From Candidatus Nanoarchaeia archaeon (GTDB taxonomy: Archaea > Nanobdellota > Nanobdellia > Woesearchaeales > SM23-78): 64,000 bases of DNA. The notes under the pieces are model-generated. The model saw nothing but the letters and a program-made list of their open reading frames with translations, was not told where the DNA came from and did not search any database. Positions 7,232 to 58,240 of the stretch are shown piece by piece. Location: contig DATDWO010000043.1 of NCBI GenBank assembly GCA_035289665.1, positions 611-64,610 on the forward strand. Reading direction: 5' to 3'. The translations under genes and the position numbers were made by a program. Positions within the stretch are counted from its first letter, which is position 1. Every line of letters begins with the position of its first letter.

Positions 7232-8299
7232 ATGGCATGGACAAAACCAGAAGGACACTCTAAGAGAAAAATTGATTTTGCAGGGACTATTCTAACTGGA
7301 GTTAAGAGTTCAGAAGAGAAAGAAGAAGCAATAAAAATATTGAACAATTGGCGAGCCGTTCATAGTTACCCTATGCATATATTCAAAATGAGGCTAAAAA
7401 GAGTATCAGAGAAACTAGATAAAGAATCATTATCTGTTCAGCGCCTTAAACGTGTCCCTTCAATTATTAAAAAATTACAGAGAGGATATCATGGAAACAG
7501 ACCCACTATGAAACTCTCGCAAATGCAAGATATCGCCGGTTGTAGAGTGGTCATGTCAAACGTCTCATTAGCAAAACAACTTTACAAAGATTCTTATATT
7601 AAAGGAGATCTAAAGCATACAAAAGTAAAAGAAAAAGACTACATCGCGAACCCAAAAGAAGACGGATACAGGAGTATTCATCTGATTTATAGGTACAATA
7701 GTGATAAAGAAGGTAAGAAAGAATATAATGGACTACTTGTAGAAGTGCAGATAAGATCAAAGCTACAACATTTATGGGCTACAGCTATAGAGACAGTAGA
7801 TTTTTTTACAAGACAAGCTATTAAGTCTAACGAAGGCGAAAAAGATTGGATGGATTTTTTTAGATTAATGAGCTCAGCATTTGCTATACTAGAAAATTGT
7901 CCATGCGTTCCAAATACTCCCACTGACGAAAAAGAATTGTTCTCTCAAATAAAAACTAAAGAAAGAGAGTTAAACGTTATAAAAATAATGACTGGATGGA
8001 CAAGAGCAATTAGGGTATTTGAGCAAGAAGTAAAAAAGAAATCTGAACTACAGTTTTTCTTATTAGAGCTAGATATTTTAGGAGAAAAGCTAACTATCAG
8101 CGAATATACAAAAGATCAGGAAAAAAAAGCGATAGCAGACTACGCAAAAGCTGAAAAAAGAAATGAAGGAAAAAAAGAATTTGACGTGGTTCTTGTTGGA
8201 GCTGATACAAGCAATGATTTAAAAAAAGCTTATCCGAACTACTTCGTAGATACTGGAGAATTCTTAATAAATCTTAAGAAGATTTTAGATAAGTATTAA
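7232..8299 (+). CDS. RelA/SpoT-family nucleotidyltransferase (small alarmone synthetase fold; toxSAS/CapRel-like single-chain architecture with ~140-aa C-terminal extension)
   Basis: Synthetase-domain motifs: LKRVPSIIKKL..DIAGCRVV..DYIANPKEDGYRSIHL..LLVEVQIRSKLQHLWA; 355 aa. Confidence 0.75.
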   Translation: MAWTKPEGHSKRKIDFAGTILTGVKSSEEKEEAIKILNNWRAVHSYPMHIFKMRLKRVSEKLDKESLSVQRLKRVPSIIKKLQRGYHGNRPTMKLSQMQDIAGCRVVMSNVSLAKQLYKDSYIKGDLKHTKVKEKDYIANPKEDGYRSIHLIYRYNSDKEGKKEYNGLLVEVQIRSKLQHLWATAIETVDFFTRQAIKSNEGEKDWMDFFRLMSSAFAILENCPCVPNTPTDEKELFSQIKTKERELNVIKIMTGWTRAIRVFEQEVKKKSELQFFLLELDILGEKLTISEYTKDQEKKAIADYAKAEKRNEGKKEFDVVLVGADTSNDLKKAYPNYFVDTGEFLINLKKILDKY

Positions 8300-10711: not shown

Positions 10712-11482
10712 ATGCCTAGAGTCTTTCAATATGGTTCTAATCTGGATAAAACTCGGCTAGAGAAGCGAGTAGGTTCTGTTAAAGATTTAGGAAGACATGA
10801 ATTGCCTGGCTTTCGCTTAACCTTTGATATATTCAGTACTGGAAACAATTGTGCAGCTGCGAATATAACGCCCGATCATGATGGTCGAGTTGTCGGTAGA
10901 GTTTATGAATTAACACCTGAACAGTTAGCGAGGTTAGACCGTGTTGAAGGCGTATTAGGAGAAGTTGGAAATTATAAAAGAATCTCTCTTGCAGGAGGCC
11001 TTGAGACGTATGTAGCTACCGAAAGTCGTCGAGATGTAGCACGTTGCAGAGCTTACCCCCCTTCTGATGAATATTTAAATCATATTATTCGGGGCTTAGG
11101 AGAAATCGGTGCCGAAGAAGACTATGTTCGCCAAGTACGAGAGGCTGCTGGCAGAACTACCTGCCCGTCTACTGTTACGGTTTTTGCTGCTTATGATAAT
11201 CCTTCTACTTACTTACCTGATGCCATTGGCTTAAATGCTAAACTTAGAAAGCAACTTGGAATTCATGAAGATGACCTTGTTGAAATAGAATATGAAGGTA
11301 GAACACAGCGTATGCGTGTCAAGAAAGTTCATGAAGAGCTTATTCGCGGACCCTCCAAGACTACAGATCCTATAACTATATCTAGAGCTGCCCGAGAAGC
11401 TTTAGGTCTTCCTCTAAAAGATCGAAGAGATACACCTAAGTACAATGCTAGGTACGTAGGATTTACTATAAGAAAAGTTTAG
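10712..11482 (+). CDS. Gamma-glutamyl cyclotransferase-like (AIG2/GGCT fold) protein with extra C-terminal domain
   Basis: YGSNLDKTRLEKR...GRVYELTPEQLARLDRVEG...YKR pattern of GGCT-like family; C-terminal ~90 aa unassigned. Confidence 0.5.
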   Translation: MPRVFQYGSNLDKTRLEKRVGSVKDLGRHELPGFRLTFDIFSTGNNCAAANITPDHDGRVVGRVYELTPEQLARLDRVEGVLGEVGNYKRISLAGGLETYVATESRRDVARCRAYPPSDEYLNHIIRGLGEIGAEEDYVRQVREAAGRTTCPSTVTVFAAYDNPSTYLPDAIGLNAKLRKQLGIHEDDLVEIEYEGRTQRMRVKKVHEELIRGPSKTTDPITISRAAREALGLPLKDRRDTPKYNARYVGFTIRKV

Positions 11483-12867
11483 GTCTTTTTTACCTTCACT
11501 CCTTCTTTGGTATCTTCCAAAATGTATCCTTTGGCTTCAATTTCCTTCCGGACAGCGTCGGACTCAGCGTATTTTTTCTCTTTGCGAAGTGACTCTCGTT
11601 TGTCAATTAAGGCTTGGATGTTTGTAGGGACGTGGACGTCTTCCACTTCTAAAAGCTTTAAGCCGAGTACCTGATCGAACTTTGCCAGAGCATCTAACTT
11701 TTCCTTGTTGCCTATAGAGTCGTCTTTCACCAAGCCCCATAGTGTGGCCAAGGCCTTCGGCATGTTGAGATCGTCATTGATGTCCTCTATGAAATCTGCT
11801 TCGTATTTTTTCGTGTCGCCTTTGCTTGTTGGGTGTTTTTTCATCTCCAAGATGCGGTCTTTCAAACCTGAGAAAGCATTCTTGGCGGCCTGCAAGGCTT
11901 CCATGGTGAAGGCCATGGGGATTCGGTAATGAGTGTTTAGGCAGAGATAACGATACTCCAGCGGATCAAAGCCCTGCTCTTGCAGAGAGGATAAAGTAAC
12001 TAAGTTGCCTAAACTCTTGCTCATCTTTTCCTTGTCCAAGACCAAGAATTCACCATGCATCCAGTACTTCACCCAGGGGTGCTTGCCTGTTGCGGCTTCA
12101 GACTGCGCGATTTCGTTGGTGTGATGCACGGGAATGTGATCGATCCCGCCACAATGAATATCAAACTGCTCGCCTAAGTATTTGATCGACATGGCTGAAC
12201 ATTCGATATGCCATCCCGGATATCCCTCCTCACCCCAGGGACTTTTCCAGTTCAAGAGATGATGTTTGAATTTCGACTCGGTGAACCACAGGACGAAATC
12301 ATGAGGGTTTCTTTTTTCTGTGTCCACTTCGATGCGTGCGCCGGCTTCTAAGCCTTCCATCTTCAACTTAGCTAGTTCACCATATTGTTTGAATTTAGCA
12401 ATGTCAAAGTAGACATTACCCCCTGCGAGATACGCGTAGCCGTTTTTTTCAATGCGTTGAATCAGTTCAATTATTTCTTTTATGTGTTCCGTGGCTTTGC
12501 AGATGGTATGTGGCATTAAGGTGTTTATTTTTTTCATATCCTCAAAAAAGACTTGAGTATAGAACTGTGCGATTTCCATGACTGACTTGCCTTCCTTTTT
12601 TGCGGCCTTGTCCATCTTATCCTCGCCTTCATCGGCATCGGAAGTTAGGTGGCCGACATCCGTGATGTTCATCACATGCTTGACTTTGTATTGGTTGTAT
12701 TCCAGGACTCTACGTAGGATGTCTTCGAATAGGTATGTACGAGCGTGACCGACGTGCGTGTAGAAGTAAACCGTAGGGCCGCACGTGTAGAGCTTTACTT
12801 CCTTAAGATCTAAGGGCTGGAAAGGCTCTTTTTTACGAGTTAAGGTGTTGAATAGCTTTAGCGCCAT
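11479..12867 (-). CDS. cysS: Cysteinyl-tRNA synthetase
   Basis: HIGH-type motif HVGHARTY, KMSKSLGN motif, 462 aa. Confidence 0.9.
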   Translation of the reverse strand: MALKLFNTLTRKKEPFQPLDLKEVKLYTCGPTVYFYTHVGHARTYLFEDILRRVLEYNQYKVKHVMNITDVGHLTSDADEGEDKMDKAAKKEGKSVMEIAQFYTQVFFEDMKKINTLMPHTICKATEHIKEIIELIQRIEKNGYAYLAGGNVYFDIAKFKQYGELAKLKMEGLEAGARIEVDTEKRNPHDFVLWFTESKFKHHLLNWKSPWGEEGYPGWHIECSAMSIKYLGEQFDIHCGGIDHIPVHHTNEIAQSEAATGKHPWVKYWMHGEFLVLDKEKMSKSLGNLVTLSSLQEQGFDPLEYRYLCLNTHYRIPMAFTMEALQAAKNAFSGLKDRILEMKKHPTSKGDTKKYEADFIEDINDDLNMPKALATLWGLVKDDSIGNKEKLDALAKFDQVLGLKLLEVEDVHVPTNIQALIDKRESLRKEKKYAESDAVRKEIEAKGYILEDTKEGVKVKKT

Positions 12868-12968
12868 TAAGGTTCGTTGGCGTCGAGAAGTTTATAATGG
12901 TTTTGTGCAGGGGAAATTAGTTTCTATATAGAAGATAATATCTGGTTTATACACAGTATGCCCTTTCC

Positions 12969-14165
12969 TTAAGTCCGCTGACTCAATACCAATCGCTTAA
13001 ACACAATCGGAGAAATGATCGTTGTGACCAATGACATCATCACCAACGCTGTAAATAAACCCCCTGATAAAATCCCTGCCCTTAATGCCAAAGCTGCGAT
13101 CACCAGCTCTACATCTCCTTTTGGATTCAATCCCCAACCCAATAACCAACCTTCTTTCCATTTTCCCCCATCCAGGCGAATCGCAATAGCGGTTCCAAGA
13201 ACAGTCCCCACGGTTGCGAGAACCACTAACAAGACAATTAACCCTGCATTCGGTATAATTGCACTTAAATCCACATTCACTCCAATCCAAACCGAAAACA
13301 ACGGAATCAAAAATCCAAATGCGATGATATGGATGGATCGGGAGATGTCGTGCTCTTCCCACTTAGGCAACGTAACATCTCTAAAAATGGTCTGACGAAT
13401 GACAATCCCTGCCACCATCGCCCCAATCATCGCTCCAACGGAAAGGTACTCTGCTAGTGAAGCAATCAACAAGACAATAATCATCGCTCCGGTAAACCGA
13501 GCTGTGCTTGAATTCTCTCTATTGAATAATTTTAGTGTCCAAGGCACCACCCACAACTTCGCTAGCACAATTAATAGAAGAAAAAATCCCATATCCAGCA
13601 ATAAACGGTCCACTGTAAAATTGGTCACGGCTATGTGGAGCACGGACAACAATACACTGATCATCACTAATTCTACTACGTCGTCTACAGCACCGGCCGT
13701 TACAATCAAGTTTCCAATCTTTGATTTTAACATTTTCAATTCTTCCAATAAGTCAACTGAGACGGCTTGTGCACTTACAGACAACGAAATCCCAACAATG
13801 ACACTCACCAATGCAGAGGCACCAAAAAAAATATGCATGGCAAAATACCCCATTATAAATGGAAGCGAAGTATTAAACACTGAAATCAAGAAAGACTTCC
13901 TCATGTTCTGTGTAAACGCTAAAAAATTAGTTTCCAACCCGATATAATAGAACAACAATATAATCCCCAGATTCGCCAAAAATGACAACACCTCCATGTT
14001 TTCTGCACCAAAGATGTAAGACTTAAAGCTACCTATCCCTAATATTAATCCAGCCAAAATTTGGCCTACCACTCTAGGCAAACCCAACTGCTTAAATGCC
14101 TCTGCCAGCAGATAAGCTAATAATAAACAGATCAAGACCATCAATAAAACAGAGACCATTCTCAT
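12969..14165 (-). CDS. Cation:proton antiporter (CPA/NhaP-KefB-like sodium/hydrogen exchanger family)
   Basis: 398 aa, ~11 predicted TM helices, Na+/H+ exchanger-like composition. Confidence 0.55.
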   Translation of the reverse strand: MRMVSVLLMVLICLLLAYLLAEAFKQLGLPRVVGQILAGLILGIGSFKSYIFGAENMEVLSFLANLGIILLFYYIGLETNFLAFTQNMRKSFLISVFNTSLPFIMGYFAMHIFFGASALVSVIVGISLSVSAQAVSVDLLEELKMLKSKIGNLIVTAGAVDDVVELVMISVLLSVLHIAVTNFTVDRLLLDMGFFLLLIVLAKLWVVPWTLKLFNRENSSTARFTGAMIIVLLIASLAEYLSVGAMIGAMVAGIVIRQTIFRDVTLPKWEEHDISRSIHIIAFGFLIPLFSVWIGVNVDLSAIIPNAGLIVLLVVLATVGTVLGTAIAIRLDGGKWKEGWLLGWGLNPKGDVELVIAALALRAGILSGGLFTALVMMSLVTTIISPIVFKRLVLSQRT

Positions 14166-34505: not shown

Positions 34506-34683
34506 TGCGGGGGAAGGGATTCGAACCCTCGCACCCACTAAGGGACTACCCGTTTGATTGCGCTTGAATGAGACGAGCTTTGCTCGCCAACATTTTTACA
34601 GCGGCTTGAACCGCTGAATGTCGAAAAGCTTCGCTTTCCGACTCCTCAAGGTAGCGCATTTGACCAGGCTCTGCCACCCCCGC
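34506..34683 (-). tRNA. tRNA-Leu(GAG) with ~90-nt intron in anticodon loop
   Basis: 5' GCGGGGGUGGCAGAGCCUGGUCAAAUGCG-CUACC-UUGAGG..., 3' GGUAG + long variable arm + GAGGG-UUCGAAU-CCCUU-CCCCCGC-A; acceptor pairs perfectly. Confidence 0.6.
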
Positions 34684-38368: not shown

Positions 38369-38695
38369 CTAAATTTTAGCACTCAATCTTTCCTTTAAAA
38401 TTGTCACCAGTTCCAGATCATTCCGTTGGTAAATATCAAGGATGTTCAGCACCATGATCTTCTTCTCCAGTTCTGGGTATAAATAAGTAATGTAGAGCTT
38501 ATGTTCTTCCTCCATGCAGAAGATCTTGCCAGCCCATTGGAGTAATTGGTAGGTGATGCGGTTCGGGGCGTCGGGCGCAACGCCCGCCGACTTTACATTG
38601 CCTTTTTTCTTGTTTTCCTTGAGCATCTTACGGAAGACTTTTTCGGCTGTAGGACTTCGTATCTCGTTGTTGGTGCAGATGAAGAGGTAGTTCAT
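38369..38695 (-). CDS. Low-molecular-weight protein tyrosine phosphatase / ArsC-like
   Basis: N-terminal CX5R P-loop (CTNNEIRS) at residue 7; 108 aa. Confidence 0.65.
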   Translation of the reverse strand: MNYLFICTNNEIRSPTAEKVFRKMLKENKKKGNVKSAGVAPDAPNRITYQLLQWAGKIFCMEEEHKLYITYLYPELEKKIMVLNILDIYQRNDLELVTILKERLSAKI

Positions 38696-39048
38696 TTTTT
38701 GTGATAACCAAATTTTTCATTGTAAATATTATGGTCCAGTATATCGGTGATGAAGCAGATGATTTCTTGTTCATTGCCCTTTATCGTGTATATCATTCTC
38801 CAATATTGAACCAACTCTGCTCTCCATAAATTATGGACATGGTATTCTTTTGGAACCTTATTCTTAGAGATGTTGCATCCATAGAATGGATTGGAGCGTA
38901 TGAATTCTATCTTTTGCCGTATGGATTTAAGCAACTGCATTTCTGGATGGAATTCTTTGTCTTCTTTTATGTTTTGTTCTAATTCTTTCAATTTTTTGAA
39001 TTCTTGCTCTGCGTTTCCTATAAGAACGATCCGCACCTTTCTGTTCAT
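38692..39048 (-). CDS. RelE/ParE-superfamily toxin-like protein
   Basis: C-terminal LWRAELVQYWRMIYTIKGNEQEIICFITDILDH..Y pattern typical of ParE/RelE fold; 4-bp overlap with LMW-PTP gene. Confidence 0.5.
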   Translation of the reverse strand: MNRKVRIVLIGNAEQEFKKLKELEQNIKEDKEFHPEMQLLKSIRQKIEFIRSNPFYGCNISKNKVPKEYHVHNLWRAELVQYWRMIYTIKGNEQEIICFITDILDHNIYNEKFGYHKK

Positions 39049-46036: not shown

Positions 46037-46933
46037 TCACCCCAGCTGCATATCAAACTGATTTGTTTTTGACTCCAATTCTCCCACATGTCCCTTCAGC
46101 GAGAGCGTATTTTGATTGTTCTTTAACTCAGAGGTTACACTTCCTCGATACTGCTGCAGACTCAGCTCATCTTTCTCTGTTTTTAATGTCAACTTGTTTC
46201 CAATCTGAATAGGGCCTGAACTCAAGCCCGCTAATGAAGCAATTTCTGCGTTTTCAATGGAAACAATTCCCTCTTCTAATAGAAGCGTATACTCCTCCTT
46301 ACTTTTCCACCGGACTTCTGTGTTGGCGTTTTGATAGCCTGCCATCTCGCCTTCCAACTTGAGTTGGTTGTTCTTCCAACTGAGGGTTCCTGTGAAACCT
46401 TGAATGTCGGCTTGCCCCCCTGTTTCTAAAATAAGCTCTTCAGTCGAACCTTTCAACTCGTGTTTTGTTGTCTCAATATGTAGGTTTACATTACTTAAGG
46501 CAATGGAGTACTCTGAGAGTTGAAGTTCGCTTTGAATGTCCATATCTTTTGCTTGATAGGCTTGCTTGCTATTTGCTTCGGAAGCTGTTTCGGAAGCCGA
46601 CGCATCGGATGCTTCCGACATAGGGTTTTTTCCGAACAAAATGGCTTTTGCCTTTCCTAGAAAACCTTCTTCCCCTGAAGCGGGAGCATCTTCTTCTGCG
46701 CTTCTACTTGATTGAAAATTTGATGGTGCATTTGGATCCAGAACCTCATTGCCTGTGATCTGTGTGAAATGCTCTTCAAAACCCCATAATCCAAGGGCTA
46801 AAACCGCTAAGGCTACACTCCCAACTAAGATAAGCCAACCACACATTTTTTTCCGATCAGACACTTCTTCCTGATGTGGTTTAAAGAACTCTCTTGTTTC
46901 TTTCATCTTTGTCACATCGATAAAATCTGCCAT
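46037..46933 (-). CDS. Membrane-anchored hypothetical protein (N-terminal TM, extracytoplasmic beta-rich domain)
   Basis: TM helix GWLILVGSVALAVLALGLW; no domain recognised. Confidence 0.45.
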   Translation of the reverse strand: MADFIDVTKMKETREFFKPHQEEVSDRKKMCGWLILVGSVALAVLALGLWGFEEHFTQITGNEVLDPNAPSNFQSSRSAEEDAPASGEEGFLGKAKAILFGKNPMSEASDASASETASEANSKQAYQAKDMDIQSELQLSEYSIALSNVNLHIETTKHELKGSTEELILETGGQADIQGFTGTLSWKNNQLKLEGEMAGYQNANTEVRWKSKEEYTLLLEEGIVSIENAEIASLAGLSSGPIQIGNKLTLKTEKDELSLQQYRGSVTSELKNNQNTLSLKGHVGELESKTNQFDMQLG

Positions 46934-47066: not shown

Positions 47067-48008
47067 ATGAAACGCAAAGTTATCCAACTTGCCCACTCCA
47101 CTGCGGTCATTTCGCTCCCCAGCAAATGGGTAAAAAAGTACGGCGTCAAAAAAGGCGACGAGATAGAAGTAGGTGAAGAGGAAAGCAGACTGATTGTCAC
47201 GGCTGAACAAACTGGCTCCCCCAAAAAACAAGAAATTGAAGTTGATATGGCTGGAATGGCCCCTCGCGCACTCATGTGGACTTTAGTAGGCCTGTACCGC
47301 GCTGGTTACGATCGCATCCGCATTCTCTATGATGACACCATTCAATTCGAACAGATCCACCTTTACGTTGGAAACCTATTGGAAGGATTTCAGCTAACAG
47401 AAGAAGGCAAAGGATACTGTGTAGTGGAAAGTGTTTCTAAAGGAATGGAAGCAGATTTTCTTCCTCTCTTTCGCAAAACATTACGATTGGTCTCAGCTAT
47501 GGGTCAGAGTAGCTTAGAAGCCATTCGCAACAATGATCTTCAGCAACTGAAAGAAGTGCTTGTATTGGAAGACACCAACAATCGCCTTAGCATCCTATGC
47601 GAGCGCATGCTTACTAAAGGGGCCTGCGTTCCCTCTAATGTGAAGTCGTACTTCTTTGTCATGGCCTGGCATAGCCAAAAGATGTGCAATCTCTACCGAG
47701 ACCTTTGCAGATACTTAGTAGAAAAACAAAAATTAAAACTAAGCAAAAAGTTGTTCGAGCTCTATGCGTACACGAACCAGGTCGTGCAGTCCTACGAAGA
47801 ACAGTACAACCACACTGAAATCTCAAGACTTGTAGAACTCTTCACAGAGACCCGTCGCAGAGCAATGGATGTCGACATTGCGGTTTATTCCAAAGAGGAA
47901 CAGCGTGTTGTGTTTTATTTACTCTCTATTCTTCATCGAGTTTCGGACATATCGACCGTCTTGATCGGGATCCATGAAAGTCTGCGCCAAAAAAAAGATT
48001 TAGCCTAA
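47067..48008 (+). CDS. AbrB/SpoVT-domain + PhoU-like domain protein (archaeal phosphate-uptake-regulator-type architecture)
   Basis: N-terminal KVIQLAHSTAVISLPSKWVKKYGVKKGDEIEV swapped-hairpin; helical C-terminal remainder. Confidence 0.45.
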   Translation: MKRKVIQLAHSTAVISLPSKWVKKYGVKKGDEIEVGEEESRLIVTAEQTGSPKKQEIEVDMAGMAPRALMWTLVGLYRAGYDRIRILYDDTIQFEQIHLYVGNLLEGFQLTEEGKGYCVVESVSKGMEADFLPLFRKTLRLVSAMGQSSLEAIRNNDLQQLKEVLVLEDTNNRLSILCERMLTKGACVPSNVKSYFFVMAWHSQKMCNLYRDLCRYLVEKQKLKLSKKLFELYAYTNQVVQSYEEQYNHTEISRLVELFTETRRRAMDVDIAVYSKEEQRVVFYLLSILHRVSDISTVLIGIHESLRQKKDLA

Positions 48009-50525
48009 TGAATGAAGGCCTTCGTAAAGGATTGTTAAACGAGCTCTTTCTGCTCCGCTCTCTGCATTCATACAACTTTCTGTGAAACCCTCAGCCCACC
48101 TTCGCGCTCTTTTTAAACTATACACATCCTTTTCTGTACCTCCCAAGCCCTTGATGACCCGTATAGGGGGTAAGAACTGGCGCAAAGCAACACTTCGCAA
48201 CACATGACTTGGCATGAATTGGGCTGAGTAAGGATTTTCTGGAGGACGAATGTTACTTGCCAACTGACTGCCAAAGGATCTAGCATCGACCTCGCTTACT
48301 CCAATGAGGGTAAACCATTCTATTGCTTGGCTTTTCACATATGATCGCAATGATTCATGGTCTGTTCCATCCAGTAGGGCTAAACGACTTTCTCTAGCAG
48401 GATTTATATATTGTGTTACCACTCTTTTAACGGCTTCTTCGATTACTCCAACTTCGGATGGTAAATTCGGGAGTACTCCTGTTACGATTTCTTCCATCGT
48501 TCCTACTCTCAAATACGGATCGAAGAACGAAGTTCTACCTGCATTGCGTAAAGTCAGGTCCCAATCTACTACGGTAGGCGTTCCTTCTCGGATGCGAAGG
48601 GTCTCTGCTAGCGCCTTTGTAAAAGCCTCTCGATTTGGAAGTTCACGCTGATAAACCTGTTCCAAGCCCGCTGTGATTTCCACTGCAAAACGATCTAGCT
48701 CCTCTTCTCTATACTTGCGAACGCAGAGAGAATCGGTTTTTTTAGGTGTCCTTCCTAAAAGAGTTCCTGCCACTTTTAACGTATCTTCTAACTCTGCTTT
48801 CAGCACCGGATGTTCCCCATTGAAGAATAGACTGTTTCTCAATGCACGCTCTTCTCTTGTGTTATGCCCCAAGAACTGAATCACTAGGTAACCTGGTTTC
48901 ACAAATTGGTATTGTGGCCTTTGAATGCCGGTTTCCGGAGCGAGCACGGAAGCTAAGTACAAGGCCTCCATGGTCTGCCTTTGCTCACGCTCTTTTGGAA
49001 GATACTTAACCACTCGGTGCTCCACCCGCAATGCTCTTGAATTTGGATTTTTCACGTAAAACGTTCCCAACCAAACATCGGGTTGCTGAGGGGTTGTTCC
49101 TTTCTTTAGCAATCGTGTTCTCATTAAGGCCCCCTCCAAATCAATTCCTTGGAGGAAGGAGTCATATGCGTCTTTTCCTCCTTGTTCCATGATGCGCATA
49201 GCTAGACCCCTTTCCGAAAGAAGCCGCTCAAAGGAAAACCTTCTGTGAGCAAACGAATACTCACTTGCTGCCTCACTTACCCCATGTAGATCCCTCAGCC
49301 ACCGAACGACTTCCGGAGGCAGAGAACCAAACGATTCTGGGAGTTTACCTCTTGCTTTTGCTGCTACTTCCACCATGCCCAGCACTTCGTCTTCTGTAGG
49401 TGCTCGTCGTCCCCCTTCTCTTTGAATCAGCAAACTCGGTCGATGCAACAATTCTTCGGGATCGATGGTTCGTTTTCCATCCTTTCCTATTTCTAGACTT
49501 GAGTGAATATGGAATCTACGCCGTTCTCGATCTCCTGTATGAACAAGCACATCCACTCCATATTTTGGTTGATGGCCTTCATCTGAACTGTCTGCATGAT
49601 ACCCTCTTACTTTTCCGGGGAACAGATTCCAAAACCTCTCTAGTAAAAGGTTTGCAATGAAGCCTGATCGCGTCGTGTAAGCGGGAAGCTCATGATCTCC
49701 ATTCGATGTCAATATAGGATTGGAGAAGAAAGTTTCAACCACTTCATCCAGATCCACCGGCTGCAACTCAGCTGAGAGAAAGTAACACAACCCTTGACTC
49801 CACGTTATGAGATGATGTGCTGCTTCGTAAACATTGCCTTCACCTAGCTGAAATTTAAACCGTGAAAGAGGTTCATGAAGTGTTTGCCGGATTCTTTCAA
49901 AACTCGGGCTGACCTTTGAGCTGGAAGCTTTACTTACAAAAAGAAGATTGGGAAGCTCTAAAACTCCTCTCAAGTTCATTAATCTTTTATACTCTTTTTT
50001 TAATCGGCTTTTTTCTGTTGGTGAGATGTTTCCTTGCTCGAATAGGTAATTCACCATTTCTGCTACTTGAATTTCAGAAGTGTCTAAAGGAAGTACGGGC
50101 ATTCCTCTTAATTCTGCCATTACTCGTTCATGCAACCCCTTTGCTTGATGAAACAACGTTCCAATCATGCGCCTTGTTAACTTTGGCTCTTGAAAAGAAG
50201 TGCCATCCAGATCCCTAAATAAAACGATGTCATACGGCTTTTCTTCTGGACTTTCGTATCTTCTCCAAACCCTCCTTGCTAATTCTTCCTTTCCTTCCAA
50301 TGCTGTGTTTAACAACACTAGAAAATGATCCTGTGCGGGCTTGCAATTGTAAATCCTCTTGAAAAGAAGGTCATCTAATAGTAAGCAATGCCCTCCTGTA
50401 AAATGAGTATCGATTGGAGTAAGAGAAGGCTGCCGAGGGCGTATAAGGTCTCGATCTAGTAAGACACCTGCTTCTGAAACAATTGCGTCTAATTCACTTT
50501 TTCCCATTCTATCCCTGAACGTCAA
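48000..50525 (-). CDS. Large hypothetical protein (841 aa), GC-rich
   Basis: Long uninterrupted ORF; no domain recognised. Confidence 0.5.
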   Translation of the reverse strand: MTFRDRMGKSELDAIVSEAGVLLDRDLIRPRQPSLTPIDTHFTGGHCLLLDDLLFKRIYNCKPAQDHFLVLLNTALEGKEELARRVWRRYESPEEKPYDIVLFRDLDGTSFQEPKLTRRMIGTLFHQAKGLHERVMAELRGMPVLPLDTSEIQVAEMVNYLFEQGNISPTEKSRLKKEYKRLMNLRGVLELPNLLFVSKASSSKVSPSFERIRQTLHEPLSRFKFQLGEGNVYEAAHHLITWSQGLCYFLSAELQPVDLDEVVETFFSNPILTSNGDHELPAYTTRSGFIANLLLERFWNLFPGKVRGYHADSSDEGHQPKYGVDVLVHTGDRERRRFHIHSSLEIGKDGKRTIDPEELLHRPSLLIQREGGRRAPTEDEVLGMVEVAAKARGKLPESFGSLPPEVVRWLRDLHGVSEAASEYSFAHRRFSFERLLSERGLAMRIMEQGGKDAYDSFLQGIDLEGALMRTRLLKKGTTPQQPDVWLGTFYVKNPNSRALRVEHRVVKYLPKEREQRQTMEALYLASVLAPETGIQRPQYQFVKPGYLVIQFLGHNTREERALRNSLFFNGEHPVLKAELEDTLKVAGTLLGRTPKKTDSLCVRKYREEELDRFAVEITAGLEQVYQRELPNREAFTKALAETLRIREGTPTVVDWDLTLRNAGRTSFFDPYLRVGTMEEIVTGVLPNLPSEVGVIEEAVKRVVTQYINPARESRLALLDGTDHESLRSYVKSQAIEWFTLIGVSEVDARSFGSQLASNIRPPENPYSAQFMPSHVLRSVALRQFLPPIRVIKGLGGTEKDVYSLKRARRWAEGFTESCMNAESGAERARLTILYEGLHSLG

Positions 50526-50640
50526 GAATCCCGCGATCCTTATAAACCTGCGCCGATTGGTTTTGCTTTATTAACCAAATCGGGCCCTCGTCGATGGGAA
50601 ATGCAAACTTTTATATATTTTATAAGACTTCGATGCTACC

Positions 50641-52278
50641 ATGCCGAAACCGCGGGTTCTTCTCTACCATTCTGAGGCAGATCATTTGGCATCTCCTGCT
50701 GTTCTAGGAACCGAGTTTAGTGCCTTTTCAGCTCCCAAAGTGGTTAATGCTTCGGTTCCTTCCAGTGAACTTAGCCTTTTAGAGATTCATCGTGCTCTAG
50801 GGCAGGTAGCTCCTAAAGTCGTTGTAGTGGACGGTAGCATGGATGGAAAACAAGGAGGTGTTGACTGGAAAGAACTCATTCTTTACTTTGCTTTACAAGG
50901 AGCTCCTGTGATTGTTGCCGGAGAAGGTAATGGGGGACTTGATGAACTGGTAGATGCCAAGCGAGAAGGAGCCATTGCAGACCATGTTGAGAACGGTGCG
51001 GATTCTACTTCAAGACTGCAAGAAGCTGTTCGAAAGGCTTTGAATCATCGAATCAACATGATGTTTTTGCCAGAACATGTGACCTATCCCGTTCGATCAG
51101 AAGAGTTTGTTTTTGACCCTCAACGGGTTAGTCAACTAGGGGCTCATTGGCGTAATACCATCCATAATCCGGAAGGCGTCTTTGATTTAAGGGAATTGCT
51201 TATTCAAGTCAGTGGTACCGCTAACCTTGCACAAAATTTATTTGATTCTGGCGAAGTTCAAACAGCAGTAAACGTATGGGCCCGTACCTTAAACATGCTT
51301 GAGTATGCTAAACAAGAAGAGGCAGGATTAAATTTAGTGAATTACCTATTAACCAACTCTTCTTCCGTTCAGTTACTCGGACGCGACAAAAAGAGGGCTC
51401 TTGCTATACAAGCTGAACTTAAAAGAAACCCTAATTATCTTGGAAGCGCAGCGGATTCGCTTTCCTTTTCCCAATTAGAAACGTTGATGCGAATGTCTAA
51501 GGCTCTTGAATCCGCTGCATCTGCTTATTCTTCCTCAGCAGGTATTATCCGCAAAGAAGACCGAGATGAAGTATTGAACGGAATCTATACTCAACTGGAA
51601 AGCCTCTGGGGTTCTATGCGCACTGTACTCGGATCGAGCTCTTCTGATACTTACTGGCGAGCGGAATTTACGGGTCGTATTGGCTTGACTGAAGCTACAC
51701 AACGCCGCATGTTTGAAGAAGATGATGACAAACTTACTCGCCTTACTGCCCTTGAAGCGGAGATGCTCACTCCTGCAGATCGTGTTCGCTTGTTAAAAGA
51801 GCGAGTGTTTGCTTACATTGGAAGAGCTGAACGAACCGAGCGAGGAGCCAACCCTGGAGCTGCTCATCATCTTGACCCTGCTTCGGCCGTAGCTCATCTA
51901 CTTCACGGAATGATTCCCGATTTAGACGCTTCTGCTACGGGAGCTGTCTTTTCTGGGATTGGTGCTTATCAACTCGCTCGGGTGGTTTATGATCATGGAC
52001 ATCAAGATAGAACCCTTTCTGACTGTGAACAAGCCTTTGTCACTGCGGGTGAGCGGGCTCTTGCCGTTGGATCTCCTGTTGAAATTGGTCGATACCTCGC
52101 TGCCCAACAAAATTTAGTTACTTACATAGCCTTAACCACTCCGTCACGAGAAACTCGCGCTGATCAAGTCCTTGATCGATTAAGAGCAACTCAAGAACAC
52201 GCTGATAAAAGTCCTTTAGGTCAAAGAGCGAATGAACTCTATCGAAGAGCATGCTTTGCTTTCGATCGAGAACGGTGA
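50641..52278 (+). CDS. Large hypothetical protein (545 aa), GC-rich, divergent from 48000..50525
   Basis: Long ORF; no domain recognised. Confidence 0.5.
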   Translation: MPKPRVLLYHSEADHLASPAVLGTEFSAFSAPKVVNASVPSSELSLLEIHRALGQVAPKVVVVDGSMDGKQGGVDWKELILYFALQGAPVIVAGEGNGGLDELVDAKREGAIADHVENGADSTSRLQEAVRKALNHRINMMFLPEHVTYPVRSEEFVFDPQRVSQLGAHWRNTIHNPEGVFDLRELLIQVSGTANLAQNLFDSGEVQTAVNVWARTLNMLEYAKQEEAGLNLVNYLLTNSSSVQLLGRDKKRALAIQAELKRNPNYLGSAADSLSFSQLETLMRMSKALESAASAYSSSAGIIRKEDRDEVLNGIYTQLESLWGSMRTVLGSSSSDTYWRAEFTGRIGLTEATQRRMFEEDDDKLTRLTALEAEMLTPADRVRLLKERVFAYIGRAERTERGANPGAAHHLDPASAVAHLLHGMIPDLDASATGAVFSGIGAYQLARVVYDHGHQDRTLSDCEQAFVTAGERALAVGSPVEIGRYLAAQQNLVTYIALTTPSRETRADQVLDRLRATQEHADKSPLGQRANELYRRACFAFDRER

Positions 52279-52894: not shown

Positions 52895-53029
52895 GCTGAG
52901 ATAATCGTGCCTATTTTTTCTATTTGTTTGCCGGTCCCCCTCCTGTTCCGATCACTTCTACTCCTAATTTTGCTACCATTTCCTCCAACTTGGAGCCTGC
53001 AGGTAGCTCTTGAGTGACCCAAGTCAGCT

Positions 53030-53506
53030 TCATTCGATCGAACCTAGATTCGGCAGATAGATAGACTGGACTGATGCGGTTTTTTTTTCTTGATAGCACC
53101 CATTGTTTTCTGCGAAGAATACTTCTTTCGTTACTGGGTTGTATGCCACCCCAAGGACTGGAATGTTTTGCCGAGCGATTCCAATTAACATCCAAAATTT
53201 CTCCGTTCCCTTCACAAATTCTTCTGTCCCATCAATCGGATCTACCCAGGCAATGCCTGCTTCTGGGATTTGAGTGGAAACACATTCAGCTTCCTCTTCG
53301 TTCACAACTAGATATCTTCTTTCTCGTAACCCAGCTGAAATGATCCTTCCTGCGGTTTCATCTGCTATAGTGCTTGGAGTGCCATCGCTTTTTACTGTAC
53401 TCTTGCAATTTCCATGATAACCTAAGATAGCCTCTCCAGCATTTTTTGCTAGAGAAATTAGAGTCAATAATTCGTTAGAAACGATGGGCGATTTAGACGG
53501 TGACAT
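53030..53506 (-). pseudogene. Inositol monophosphatase-family (IMPase/SuhB/CysQ-like) N-terminal part, apparently truncated/frameshifted at A9 tract (53084..53092, + strand T9)
   Basis: ADETAGRIISAGL...WVDPIDGTEEFVKG metal-binding motifs; C-terminal continuation in another frame (52920..53195). Confidence 0.45.
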
Positions 53507-53547: not shown

Positions 53548-54399
53548 CTACTCCAACGTTTCTTTTAATCGGACCTTTGCCTTAGCTAATTCGTTTATTT
53601 TTGAGAGGATCTTATTTTTTTCATCTTGACTCTGTGCTGCGTTCAACGTTTCTTCTTTTTCACGGATCAGGCGATCTAATTCTGCTATGCTTGCTAAGAC
53701 CTGCTTCTGCTCCTTTTCCTTGAGTAGGCTCTCTTTTTCTTCCTCGAGCTCTGCCTTTAACTCTTCTAGGTTTGCTTGATGCTCTTCCATACGCTGATGC
53801 ACTTTTTGCAAACGGTTGTCCAGGTTTTCCTGATCGGAGTATAACTCCTCCAACTGCTGCTTTAAGTCTTCTTTTACTTGAGTAGAAACGGTTTGCTGGA
53901 TGGCTTCCCGCATCTTTTCTATACGGAAACGATTGTCACTAATTTTTTCCTTTAATTCTGCTTCCTCTCGGGCTAGGTTGTTCAACACTTCCTGAAGCTC
54001 TTCCTCCCCCTGTTTAGCTCTGCGATCGATTCGAATCTGCTGAATCTGGTTTTCTAAGCTTTTGATTTCGTCTATTAACGAATCCCTTCTATGATACAAT
54101 CTCCTTATTTGGTTCTCTATGCTTTTCTGCTCGGATACCTTCCAACTGTTTTCTAATTCCCTTATCCTGACGCGTACTTCATTGTAGTCTGCGTAGACTT
54201 GAAGCTGTTGCTCTTGCAAGGAGACCAAAGGATCTTGAGGGATAAGAGGTTGAGTTTCCTGGACAGGCTCTTGGACGATCGTTACGTTGGTTGTGTTCTC
54301 CACTTCCAGAACCACTTGACCGGTGGGGGAGGTGGTTTCTTCTCTTGCACTGCACCCGATTAAGAACAAAACCAAGAACACTAAGATTCCTTTCTTCAT
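53548..54399 (-). CDS. Coiled-coil lipoprotein
   Basis: Signal peptide with LIGCS lipobox; E/K/Q-rich heptad sequence. Confidence 0.5.
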   Translation of the reverse strand: MKKGILVFLVLFLIGCSAREETTSPTGQVVLEVENTTNVTIVQEPVQETQPLIPQDPLVSLQEQQLQVYADYNEVRVRIRELENSWKVSEQKSIENQIRRLYHRRDSLIDEIKSLENQIQQIRIDRRAKQGEEELQEVLNNLAREEAELKEKISDNRFRIEKMREAIQQTVSTQVKEDLKQQLEELYSDQENLDNRLQKVHQRMEEHQANLEELKAELEEEKESLLKEKEQKQVLASIAELDRLIREKEETLNAAQSQDEKNKILSKINELAKAKVRLKETLE

Positions 54400-55080: not shown

Positions 55081-56436
55081 TCAATATATGCCTCCAAAGA
55101 GGCTGCTGAAAAAGTTAGTAACGGCCTGAATGATTGCATTCATTGTTGTTTTTGGTTGTGCAGGTGGTTGTTCAACTAGGCCCTCATCGCTATCAGGCAA
55201 CGGCAATTCAAGGGTTTTCTCTTCTGCGCTAAGGCTCTCATCTGATTTCTCTGATAGAGACAATTCAGGAGTTGGAGTTTCCAATGGTGATGGTGTACTT
55301 GGACTGTTTTCGTCTGAGGTTGAAGGCCGAAGCGAATGGTGTGGGGGTTCCATAAATCGGCTGGGACCATAATCTTCGGTTTCTCCAAAACCAAATGCTC
55401 CCCTTCCATTCCAAGACAAATCAACCTTTTGATCATACGTCAACGTTGCCCGAACCCAAATGTACTGGGTTACCGGGCCACTAATCAAAGGAATCAAAAC
55501 CGTATTTGTTGTCATTCCTGCAGGCCATGAGCTCACATCGATTGGATAATTCTGAACTGCATGCTCTTGCGCGATCAAGCCACAATCGACTGCACCTTGC
55601 CATCTTCCATTCATGTCCCAATCGAAAAGCATGTTCAGGTAAAGCGGTTTATTATTGGAATAAGTGTGGACGGGATCTTCCCTGCTCTTTACCGAAATAA
55701 TAACTGGCAGCATTACTTGAGAGCAAGGATGCAAACTGTACAAGTTAGAAAGCGTAATGCCGTCGTCCTTGTCATCTGCATCTACTTGCCGCGAATCAGA
55801 CTCCTTACTCACATCAATACCAAGCCATTCGTGTTCTGTATTTACATGCCTTGCTCCATTGCTTGATTTCCAACTTGGAAAGGTCGGGTCTGGGGCGTCC
55901 CCATAATCGATGGGTTGATTTTCTTCTGAAACCTGACTTTCATCCTGAGAAGATTCTGCAGCGCATTGATCCCAGCATGCCCATAAGTCTTTGTTACACT
56001 GATTTACGTCTGCGCCGCTGCTACTGCAAGATTTTTTAGCATCCATGTCGCACTGATGCATGCACTCCACTAGCTCAGGAGACTCCTGCGGCTGAGAAGG
56101 AGGAGGTGGGACATTGGTTGGCGCAGGCAAAGGAGGCGTTGGATTCCCATTTATGGCACATTGCTCGTAGCATTTAGGGATTTCTGAAGAGCATATTGGT
56201 TCAGCGGTTCCTTGGTATATGCACTGCTTTCCGTTAACCTCACACTGGTGCTGGCATTCCATCAATGGCGAGGGTATTTCTTCTTGTGGAGGAGCATCTT
56301 CTTTTGGGGGCAGATTTTCAGTGGACGAAGTTCCTGACGAGGTATCATCATCTGTGGTGGTTGAGCTGGCGTGAACTGTCTGATATGTGAACAGGAAGAG
56401 AATTATTAAGATCAGCCACGCGGTTCTAACTGTCAT
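55081..56436 (-). CDS. Secreted Cys-repeat, Ser/Thr/Pro-rich protein
   Basis: Signal peptide; repeated CxHQC(E/D)...C modules; low-complexity P/S/T tracts. Confidence 0.5.
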   Translation of the reverse strand: MTVRTAWLILIILFLFTYQTVHASSTTTDDDTSSGTSSTENLPPKEDAPPQEEIPSPLMECQHQCEVNGKQCIYQGTAEPICSSEIPKCYEQCAINGNPTPPLPAPTNVPPPPSQPQESPELVECMHQCDMDAKKSCSSSGADVNQCNKDLWACWDQCAAESSQDESQVSEENQPIDYGDAPDPTFPSWKSSNGARHVNTEHEWLGIDVSKESDSRQVDADDKDDGITLSNLYSLHPCSQVMLPVIISVKSREDPVHTYSNNKPLYLNMLFDWDMNGRWQGAVDCGLIAQEHAVQNYPIDVSSWPAGMTTNTVLIPLISGPVTQYIWVRATLTYDQKVDLSWNGRGAFGFGETEDYGPSRFMEPPHHSLRPSTSDENSPSTPSPLETPTPELSLSEKSDESLSAEEKTLELPLPDSDEGLVEQPPAQPKTTMNAIIQAVTNFFSSLFGGIY

Positions 56437-57102: not shown

Positions 57103-57219
57103 ATTACCACTTATTCTACTAAGTAGTAAAGGTGGTATTTAAAGATTGCGGTAATACAGTGTTTACCTTAGAATATTCTCGGCAGCTTTTTAAATTATTA
57201 GCGCTTATCCAAGCTTGTA

Positions 57220-57673
57220 GGACCGCCCTTAGCTGTCGGTGAATGTAGCTTTACACCTTAACTGGTTGAAGATGCCTTTGCTGAGGAAAGTCCGCCCACA
57301 CCTCGCAAGAGGAAGCAGTTCCTCATGGAAATGAGATCCTGAAAAGGATGGCAACCACTCCGAAACGAGACCCCCAACGTGCAGGATGAAAGTCATGAAG
57401 TTCCAGGCGACTGGAATAAGTTAATTGGCTGACGTTGCGTTGCCCACAGAAGCTTTGGCTTCTGGGGCGCTAGAAAGCTTAGCTTTCTATGCGGAATGGA
57501 TGAAACGGTGAGCCCGAACTTGTGCAAGTCTGTTACAGACGCTCAGTAGAATGCTAAGACATCCATCGGTGTTTCTTTTAGAAATGTGCTCAGAAATCAA
57601 TGATTTCTGGCACGCGAGCAAGCAACACTTGCTCTGCGCTTTGGGATGCACAAAAGGCGGCTTATACCGGTCC
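57220..57673 (+). ncRNA. rnpB: RNase P RNA
   Basis: ORF-free GC-rich stretch; GAGGAAAGUCCGCCCACA (CR-I/P4 5' strand) and ACAAAAGGCGGCUUAUACCGGUCC (P4 3' strand/P1 closing) with P1 GGACCG...CGGUCC pairing. Confidence 0.7.
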
Positions 57674-58240
57674 TACACTTTTTAAACTTAAAACGATCTG
57701 ATCTAAATTGATTTCTGGAGTGTGACGTCCAAAATTCCTTTTTACACGCTCAGATACAGAAAGCGACCTTCTTTTTCCTGTTTCTCCCCCTAATAATCGG
57801 GTCAGTTTTTCACTACGCCTAAGCTGAGGACTTGCCTTTACCACAAAAATCGCGATTGAAGGAGCGAATTCACAAAATTGTTGGTGAACCAAATCGATCC
57901 ATAACCCTCGTTCACTGTCGAAGTTCCAGCTATGTCGTGTTTTGCCTGGATCATAAAACCCGGCTACTTCTTGAAGAGGCGTTAGCTGAGCTACAATATA
58001 GGAAGCGGCATCACACAAACTATAAGGAAACCCTGGAAGGCCCATCATCTCGTCATATGCGCGTTCCAATCTTCGGTAATAAGGAAGCTCTGCTATGACT
58101 TCATTAGGAAGTAAACCTTGTTGCCATTCAGGAATCATTCTATAGGTTCTTGGCGCAAGTTTTTTAAACGCTACGGTTTTTCTACTTATCATGGCGAAAG
58201 ACAACCGCATTACTCTGCCCAGTTCAGGCGCAGGCATCAC
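57662..58240 (-). CDS. Hypothetical protein, GC-rich
   Basis: 192-aa ORF; no domain recognised; 3' end abuts RNase P RNA. Confidence 0.4.
   Translation of the reverse strand: MMPAPELGRVMRLSFAMISRKTVAFKKLAPRTYRMIPEWQQGLLPNEVIAELPYYRRLERAYDEMMGLPGFPYSLCDAASYIVAQLTPLQEVAGFYDPGKTRHSWNFDSERGLWIDLVHQQFCEFAPSIAIFVVKASPQLRRSEKLTRLLGGETGKRRSLSVSERVKRNFGRHTPEINLDQIVLSLKSVGPV

Follow-up and report, generated by a model that had tools for sequence, protein, structure and literature searches.

Among described enzymes, the closest point of comparison for the genes considered here is the branch of phosphotransferases that contains the aminoglycoside phosphotransferases (APH) and choline kinases (ChoK; PF01636), for which a long spacing between Lys and Asp is typical (about 146 residues in APH(3')-IIIa), unlike that of the Hanks kinases (about 94). 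A second, emerging from the present analysis, is a family of TPR-APH kinases, here called A5, encoded next to and convergent with a gene for an AbrB-domain protein in Woesearchaeota and Nanoarchaeota. The subject of this analysis is a pair of divergent genes, encoding proteins of 835 and 545 amino acids (aa), in a 64,000-nucleotide stretch of DNA from a Candidatus Nanoarchaeia archaeon (assembly GCA_035289665.1, contig DATDWO010000043.1, positions 611 to 64,610; the whole stretch is referred to below as the window), the larger of which lies in the same position relative to an AbrB-domain gene. The pair very probably forms a genuine two-gene module, inherited vertically, restricted to a single clade and served by a conserved bidirectional promoter, the cytoplasmic products of which co-diverge fast. 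A more tentative proposal, to which we give a probability of roughly 0.35, is that the 835-aa protein descends, with extreme divergence, from the AbrB-adjacent TPR-APH kinases and still carries out phosphotransfer, and that the 545-aa protein is its adaptor, regulator or substrate.

A divergent gene pair linked in four lineages

An earlier, sequence-only reading of the window had described two long, uninterrupted, mutually divergent open reading frames (ORFs) at this position, and that description is exact (see Table 1 for all coordinates). The length of 841 aa and the divergent promoter region of about 115 bp given with it are those of an ORF, and of a spacer, reckoned from a TTG codon; the true start, as judged from the alignment of orthologues and from the NCBI gene call, is an ATG that gives a protein of 835 aa beginning MGKSELD and a spacer of 133 bp. 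This protein is identical to the NCBI entry “hypothetical protein VJG90_05565” of Candidatus Nanoarchaeia archaeon. Both proteins align end to end and almost without gaps with orthologues from another metagenome-assembled genome (MAG), at 51% identity for the 835-aa and 63% for the 545-aa protein, and in both genes nucleotide conservation follows the order codon position 2 > position 1 > position 3, as it does in the adjoining genes. Both ORFs are thus real, conserved coding genes.

Relatives of either protein are few. A word-indexed search of 5.8 billion proteins returned one true homologue for each, from the same MAG and with adjoining locus tags, and a profile search of the same kind with the 545 pair gave nothing further. 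When the 835-aa profile was run exhaustively with HMMER against 1.84 billion representatives, two relatives were added: P0006 (858 aa, E 5e-12) and P0005 (726 aa, E 2e-15). Their contigs carry a gene of ~190 aa, a gene of 569 or 557 aa, a divergent gene of 858 or 847 aa and a convergent AbrB-domain gene. P0005 corresponds to the C-terminal portion of a longer gene; this gene is split in locus L006 (1433-3981, forward strand; an ENA metagenome scaffold) into ORFs of 116 and 726 aa and is intact, at 847 aa, in locus L008 (7625-10168, reverse strand; a CAYOJS01 MAG contig); the two loci seemingly come from the same organism, and a frameshift variant or an error in sequencing accounts for the split. 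No new member of either family was found in a metagenome scan and two viral-contig scans, nor was anything else found when the profile of the 545/557/569 family was run against 80 Woesearchaeota loci.

That the smaller proteins form a single family was less easily established. An initial hhalign comparison of the 545 pair with the 569/431 pair was not significant, and homology was shown only later, through the 557-aa protein of L008. BLASTP aligns this collinearly with the 545-aa protein of the window (residues 83-397 of the latter against 85-400; E 0.003 for the single comparison), with a shuffle z-score of 7.8 where controls gave about 0, while it is 31% identical to the 569-aa protein of L005 (E 2e-67). 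Since it connects both groups, the 545-, 557- and 569-aa proteins are taken as one family. On this basis the two genes occur together, adjacent and divergent, in all four lineages in which either is found (Nanoarchaeota/Woesearchaeota, DPANN), and in all four a convergent AbrB-domain gene adjoins them. The treatment of the two genes as a linked unit, for which co-occurrence had been proposed as the check, is therefore borne out: the pair is a linked, clade-restricted unit in four closely related DPANN lineages.

Within this constant arrangement the two genes diverge in step, and much faster than the genes that surround them. Between lineages the AbrB-domain neighbour retains 57-68% identity in every pairwise comparison, and three hypothetical (hyp) neighbours retain 53-61% (hyp-298), 41-54% (hyp-190/220) and 45-57% (hyp-283). 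The 835 family, on the other hand, shows 51% identity between the window and L001 and 37% between L005 and L006, falling to 22-25% across these two sub-clades, and the corresponding figures for the 545 family are 63% and 31% inside the sub-clades and about 21% across. Such concerted divergence suggests that the 835-aa and 545-aa proteins would function as partners, probably binding one another.

The spacer between the genes carries a TATA-box block on each strand. That on the strand of the 835-aa gene, GATCCTTATAAAC, lies about 37 nt before the ATG and occurs only once in the window as an exact match; that on the strand of the 545-aa gene, TTTATATAnTnTATAAGA, is single in the window even when two mismatches are allowed (0.04 expected by chance), and, ending as it does 13 nt before the ATG, it implies a leaderless or near-leaderless mRNA. 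Each block is locus-specific within the window rather than a promoter of general use in this genome. The two families have no annotation, and what is most distinctive about them is the combination of co-divergence inside a conserved frame with an invariant promoter.

A kinase-like reading of the larger protein and its alternatives

The N-terminal ~465 aa of the 835-aa protein are predicted to be mostly helical, and the C-terminal ~370 aa contain an invariant polar cluster. The four-lineage alignment of the family has 64 invariant columns; the cluster, D648-x-D650-x3-R654-N655-x7-D663-x3-R667, holds all three of the invariant Asp and one of the two invariant Asn, while K501, further towards the N-terminus, is one of two invariant Lys. 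Neither this protein nor the 545-aa protein has a transmembrane (TM) segment or signal peptide, and both are predicted to be soluble and cytoplasmic.

Searches of annotated families were uniformly unproductive. Neither protein has any match in Pfam, NCBIfam, PADLOC or PHROGs; five members of the 835 family gave nothing against Pfam even at E<=10, and PADLOC-DB gave zero families for either protein at E<=0.1. Sequence and profile searches of the PDB with both families, with the C-domain of the 835-aa protein and with the N-domain of the 545-aa protein returned only noise. The AlphaFold2 model of the 835-aa protein, built from a 2-sequence alignment, has a pLDDT of 35, and its Foldseek matches are meaningless. 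Walker A/B, SAM-methyltransferase, HExxH and PD-(D/E)xK motifs are absent from all family members, so that the earlier statement that no motif could be assigned holds for the whole of both families; nor was the confident homology to housekeeping enzymes that the sequence-only reading had said would count against it found for either protein in Pfam, NCBIfam or the PDB. Two readings of the cluster itself were considered and rejected: a HAD-like reading of “DWDLT”, because the Thr is missing in two lineages and the downstream HAD motifs are not conserved, and a Pol-beta nucleotidyltransferase or AEP-primase reading of “DxD”, because on inspection neither an upstream G[SG] nor a downstream His motif is conserved.

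The proposal that the protein is kinase-like comes in the first place from its genomic address. With the AbrB-domain neighbour as anchor, 108 Woesearchaeota/Nanoarchaeota species were matched among species-representative genomes and 80 loci were kept; across these species (loci L009-L086) the AbrB protein, of ~310 aa, begins with an AbrB/MazE domain, while its C-terminal domain of ~260 aa is unassigned. In 45 of the 80 loci the AbrB gene is followed directly by a convergent ORF of 450 aa or more, often with overlapping stop codons, and 30 of these 45 ORFs belong to the one family, A5. The profile of A5 finds TPR proteins at 1e-49 and, among APH/choline-kinase structures, 4r77 (5e-6), 7s3l (1e-5) and 3csv (7e-5), single members give weak APH or Pkinase matches in Pfam, and its near-invariant residues are limited to D, N (+5) and D. 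The slot is otherwise variable, containing singletons or, in about 35 loci, small genes, and in L060 a complete 867-aa PEP-utilising enzyme of the PPDK/PEP synthase-like type (10931-13534, reverse strand), from which it follows that the slot can be re-occupied. In the lineages considered here the slot is filled by the 835 family, with a 9-bp overlap in the window and an overlap or spacing of 8-80 bp in L001, L005 and L008, and hmmsearch detects no A5-type kinase elsewhere in the window or the related loci. No paper linking Woesearchaeota, AbrB and a kinase was found, and a general literature search on protein families of DPANN archaea gave nothing that seemed particular to the module.

The 835 family and A5 thus share slot, orientation and overlapping stops with respect to the AbrB gene. 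They are also of similar size (834-858 aa and 548-1064 aa, respectively) and have a common layout, in which a helical N-terminal part is followed by a C-terminal part containing invariant Asp, Asn and Asp residues. Spacings lie within the A5 ranges or adjacent to them: Lys to Asp is 149-153 in the 835 family and 123-175 in A5, Asp to Asn is 5 in both, Asn to Asp is 8-10 against 9-16, and Asp to C-terminus is 185-197 against 123-215. With the APH/choline-kinase branch more generally the family shares a D-x4-N motif resembling that of the catalytic loop and an invariant Lys ~150 residues upstream, and a later Asp is a possible counterpart of the metal-binding residue. Both D650 and N655, with their D-x4-N spacing, are invariant in all four lineages, as is D663, which follows the Asn by 8 residues (10 in P0006); three lineages are missed by a regular expression that demands a spacing of 9 or more. 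When labels were shuffled among the invariant positions the full K...DxxxxN...D arrangement arose in about 5e-5 of trials, a test that is partly post hoc in that the Asn-Asp range had been widened by one residue. An hhalign comparison restricted to domains brings the catalytic loops of the 835 family and A5 into register and sets K501 opposite the A5 lysine, but it is not significant; its P is 0.036, where reversed and wrong-domain controls gave 0.23-0.52.

There are, however, several points that weigh against descent from A5. The full-length hhalign comparison, although it brings the catalytic loops into register, is not significant either (E 0.19), and comparisons with three re-aligned A5 sub-families give E of about 0.3 over unrelated segments; hmmsearch is negative in both directions, and no kinase match was obtained for the 835-aa protein, either at full length or for the C-domain, with Pfam, NCBIfam or PDB profiles. 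The TPR repeats so clearly matched by A5 are not recognisable in the 835 family (Pfam, PDB). Of the features expected in the APH/choline-kinase branch, the Gly-rich loop, the His of HxD and a conserved alphaC Glu are all missing (the candidate, E514, is not conserved), although the alphaC Glu is also missing in some A5 sub-branches. The context of the catalytic loop differs too, being DWDxxxRN in the 835 family and (K/N)DAHxxN in A5. The kinase-like reading rests on genomic position and motif pattern rather than on homology or fold.

Much the same observations can be explained by non-orthologous displacement, the main rival, under which a new enzyme of unknown fold, with a DxD...RN...D metal site, arrived with its partner and replaced the ancestral TPR-kinase beside the AbrB gene in the clade's common ancestor, the likeness of motifs being coincidental. 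It would account directly for a profile link that fails to reach significance when A5 sub-families connect to one another with ease (4e-8 to 2e-37 by hhalign), for the missing Gly-loop and alphaC Glu and the short N-to-D spacing, for the variable contents of the slot at other loci, and for the 545-aa partner, which accompanies the 835 family but has no counterpart at A5 loci. What it leaves to chance is that size, orientation, 3' overlap, helical-N/catalytic-C layout and K/D/N/D spacing should all fit the family supposedly displaced, and no donor lineage or further homologue of the pair was found in any of the databases searched. Displacement is a serious candidate, if a doubtful one.

Two further possibilities dispense with a kinase fold. 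One is a new two-protein system, in which a new catalytic domain with a DxD-x3-RN-x7-D-x3-R site acts with an alpha/beta-solenoid partner, two deeply diverged, co-adapted variants of the pair being present at a fixed locus; this seems unlikely. The other, which is distinctly unlikely, is that the pair is a non-enzymatic helical scaffold, organising for instance the secreted or membrane proteins encoded nearby or the apparatus by which an episymbiont contacts its host, the polar cluster then being a binding surface. Three Asp, one Asn and two Arg that are invariant within 20 residues, in proteins otherwise only 22% identical, are what one would more usually see in a catalytic or metal site, and the neighbours that might be organised are not consistently linked to the pair.

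As to the 545-aa protein, its first ~140 aa appear to alternate between strand and helix, a pattern taken from a low-confidence model, and are followed by an all-helical repeat region (residues ~180-545); the AlphaFold2 model, from a 2-sequence alignment, has a pLDDT of 51, and of about 30 in the N-domain. Known adaptors that join a receiver- or flavodoxin-like domain to a TPR-like alpha-solenoid offer a comparison, but the N-domain lacks the conserved acidic pair after strand 1 and the Lys after strand 5; of the receiver acidic pocket only the Asp after strand 3 is invariant in the family (D64, with which the hydrophobic third strand ends). Response_reg, flavodoxin, TIR and TPR profiles from Pfam and the PDB do not match the protein. 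A TIR-like reading of the N-terminus, based on “WKE” after strand 3, was rejected since the motif is not conserved in L008.

Under the kinase-like reading, then, the pair would be transcribed divergently from the conserved 133-bp bidirectional promoter. The 835-aa protein would consist of a helical region at the N-terminus, followed by a catalytic domain that uses K501, D650, N655 and D663, and the 545-aa protein of an alpha/beta (flavodoxin/receiver-like) N-domain and an alpha-solenoid, serving as adaptor, regulator or substrate of its larger partner; the two would cooperate, probably in physical contact. What the analysis demonstrates is that the genes are real, linked, narrowly distributed and co-diverging, with conserved promoters, cytoplasmic products and no anomaly of composition; contact between the two proteins, a fold of the kinase type and the chemistry of phosphotransfer are inferred.

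Composition and surroundings of the locus

The sequence-only reading had called both genes visibly GC-richer than their neighbours and had taken this as a sign of joint acquisition, within an accessory region. Measured against 67 ORFs from the window, none overlapping another (mean GC 0.438, sd 0.030), the 835-aa gene has a GC content of 0.447 (z +0.27) and the 545-aa gene one of 0.462 (z +0.76), while GC at third codon positions (GC3) is below the window average in both (z -0.95 and -1.66, respectively). The slight excess is confined to codon positions 1 and 2 and is therefore an effect of amino-acid composition; several other stretches of the window reach 0.467, and many of its other genes are GC-richer than the pair. 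Computation thus yields no deviation, the very outcome that the sequence-only reading had named as telling against its proposal, and joint acquisition is left without compositional evidence. The true GC outliers of the window lie elsewhere, in the ORFs at 7232-8299 (forward strand) and 38692-39048 (reverse strand), with GC contents of 0.333 and 0.339 (z about -3.4), and it is these, unlike the divergent pair, that are candidates for foreign or fast-evolving DNA.

Nor do the surroundings resemble an accessory island. Upstream of the pair are genes for AspRS, tRNA-Cys, a GCD14-type tRNA methyltransferase, an MFS transporter and Endo-dU, and downstream is the archaeal RNase P RNA (57217-57676, forward strand). 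The gene order of the window matches that of a Hainich-groundwater MAG (L001/L007, locus tags AABX70), the shared order being S13/S4/S11/RpoD cluster, AspRS, GCD14, hyp-302, AbrB-312, 834, 545, hyp-187 and inositol monophosphatase (IMPase). With housekeeping flanks and a gene order conserved between MAGs, the locus is a core-like housekeeping neighbourhood, and synteny with the three other lineages points to vertical inheritance since their common ancestor. The idea that the pair was recently and jointly acquired as a foreign island, for which a GC content slightly over the mean is all that speaks, is effectively refuted by this synteny and by the low z-scores and GC3; the databases searched contain no foreign clade in which the pair could be placed.

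The sequence-only reading had also put the genes forward as candidates for new enzymatic or defence functions. The first part of this still stands in so far as no known family fits and a new function is possible; defence is unsupported by PADLOC or by the viral contigs. A two-gene defence or conflict cassette, engaged in an arms race with viruses or with a host, would be in keeping with very fast concerted divergence while the frame is conserved, with the existence of two variants deeply split from each other at a single locus, and with a narrow distribution and the lack of housekeeping homology. Against this, NTPase, nuclease, TIR, SIR2 and methyltransferase signatures are absent from both proteins, as are matches in PADLOC and PHROGs; the pair has a fixed syntenic position among housekeeping genes in all four lineages where a patchy one might be looked for; and there is neither compositional anomaly nor any viral-contig relative, nor does any mobile-element gene or other defence gene adjoin the pair. 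Such a function is very unlikely.

Table 1. Positions of the pair, its putative regulatory and catalytic elements and its immediate neighbours in the window.
Feature	Position	Strand	Remarks
835-aa gene, predicted cytoplasmic product	48000..50507	-	listed ORF (48000..50525, 841 aa) runs to TTG 50525; ATG 50507 supported by orthologues
Divergent intergenic region, 133 bp, both promoters	50508..50640	.	115 bp if TTG 50525 is used
545-aa gene, predicted cytoplasmic acidic product	50641..52278	+	
TATA-box block of 835-aa gene, GTTTATAAGGATC	50535..50547	-	invariant in all four lineages
TATA-box block of 545-aa gene, TTTATATATTTTATAAGA	50610..50627	+	16/18 positions invariant, four lineages
Codons of residues 648-667, DWDLTLRNAGRTSFFDPYLR, putative active site	48507..48566	-	sole cluster of invariant acidic residues in family
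K501 codon (VVKYL), candidate ATP-anchoring lysine under kinase-like reading	49005..49007	-	invariant; 149 residues before D650
AbrB/MazE-domain protein, 313 aa	47067..48008	+	convergent with 835-aa gene, 9-bp overlap at its 3' end
191-aa protein, N-terminal signal/TM segment	52319..52894	+	40 bp 3' of 545-aa gene, same strand

The gene for the 191-aa protein lies beside the 545-aa gene in three of the four lineages and is possibly co-transcribed with it; in L008 it is found elsewhere, and it is therefore no firm member of the module. It belongs to a run of lineage-specific genes without Pfam matches within which the pair sits, the others being at 46037-46933, 53548-54399 and 55081-56436 (all on the reverse strand). 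The products of this run, of 191, 283, 451 and 298 aa, have N-terminal signal or TM segments; the 283-aa protein has a lipobox-like LIGC and matches only models of the SMC/Rad50/JetC type, over a presumed coiled coil, and the 451-aa protein is acidic, with 14 Cys. These genes may constitute a surface-protein cluster.

Two other observations concern the window more generally. A gene of the inositol-monophosphatase family (52923-53506, reverse strand) is truncated, with a frameshift near 53088, its two frames covering residues 3-137 and 136-192 of a 282-aa orthologue. In L001 the gene is intact, and the damage represents either a pseudogene or an assembly error. A tRNA is reported by Rfam at 34506-34683 (reverse strand), the length of which, 178 nt, implies a long intron; ARAGORN made no call there.

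Implications for DPANN archaea

The module is at present confined to four uncultured lineages, a narrow distribution that limits its wider impact, and lineage-specific hypothetical proteins are in any case common in DPANN archaea. Few of these many proteins, on the other hand, come with a testable hypothesis. Here an anonymous pair of ORFs has become a defined module, with candidate catalytic residues (K501, D650, N655 and D663) and, in the TPR-APH kinase of the same slot, a plausible ancestor.

Were the pair instead a new two-protein system, it would point to diversifying selection, arising for example from conflict between symbiont and host or with viruses, on a cytoplasmic enzyme-adaptor pair held under a strictly conserved promoter. 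If the kinase-like reading is false, the pair is a candidate for a new fold or enzyme. If it is true, the 835-aa protein would be an enzyme that has diverged beyond recognition in sequence while retaining its genomic address, and the module would provide a first lead to signalling in these reduced symbionts.

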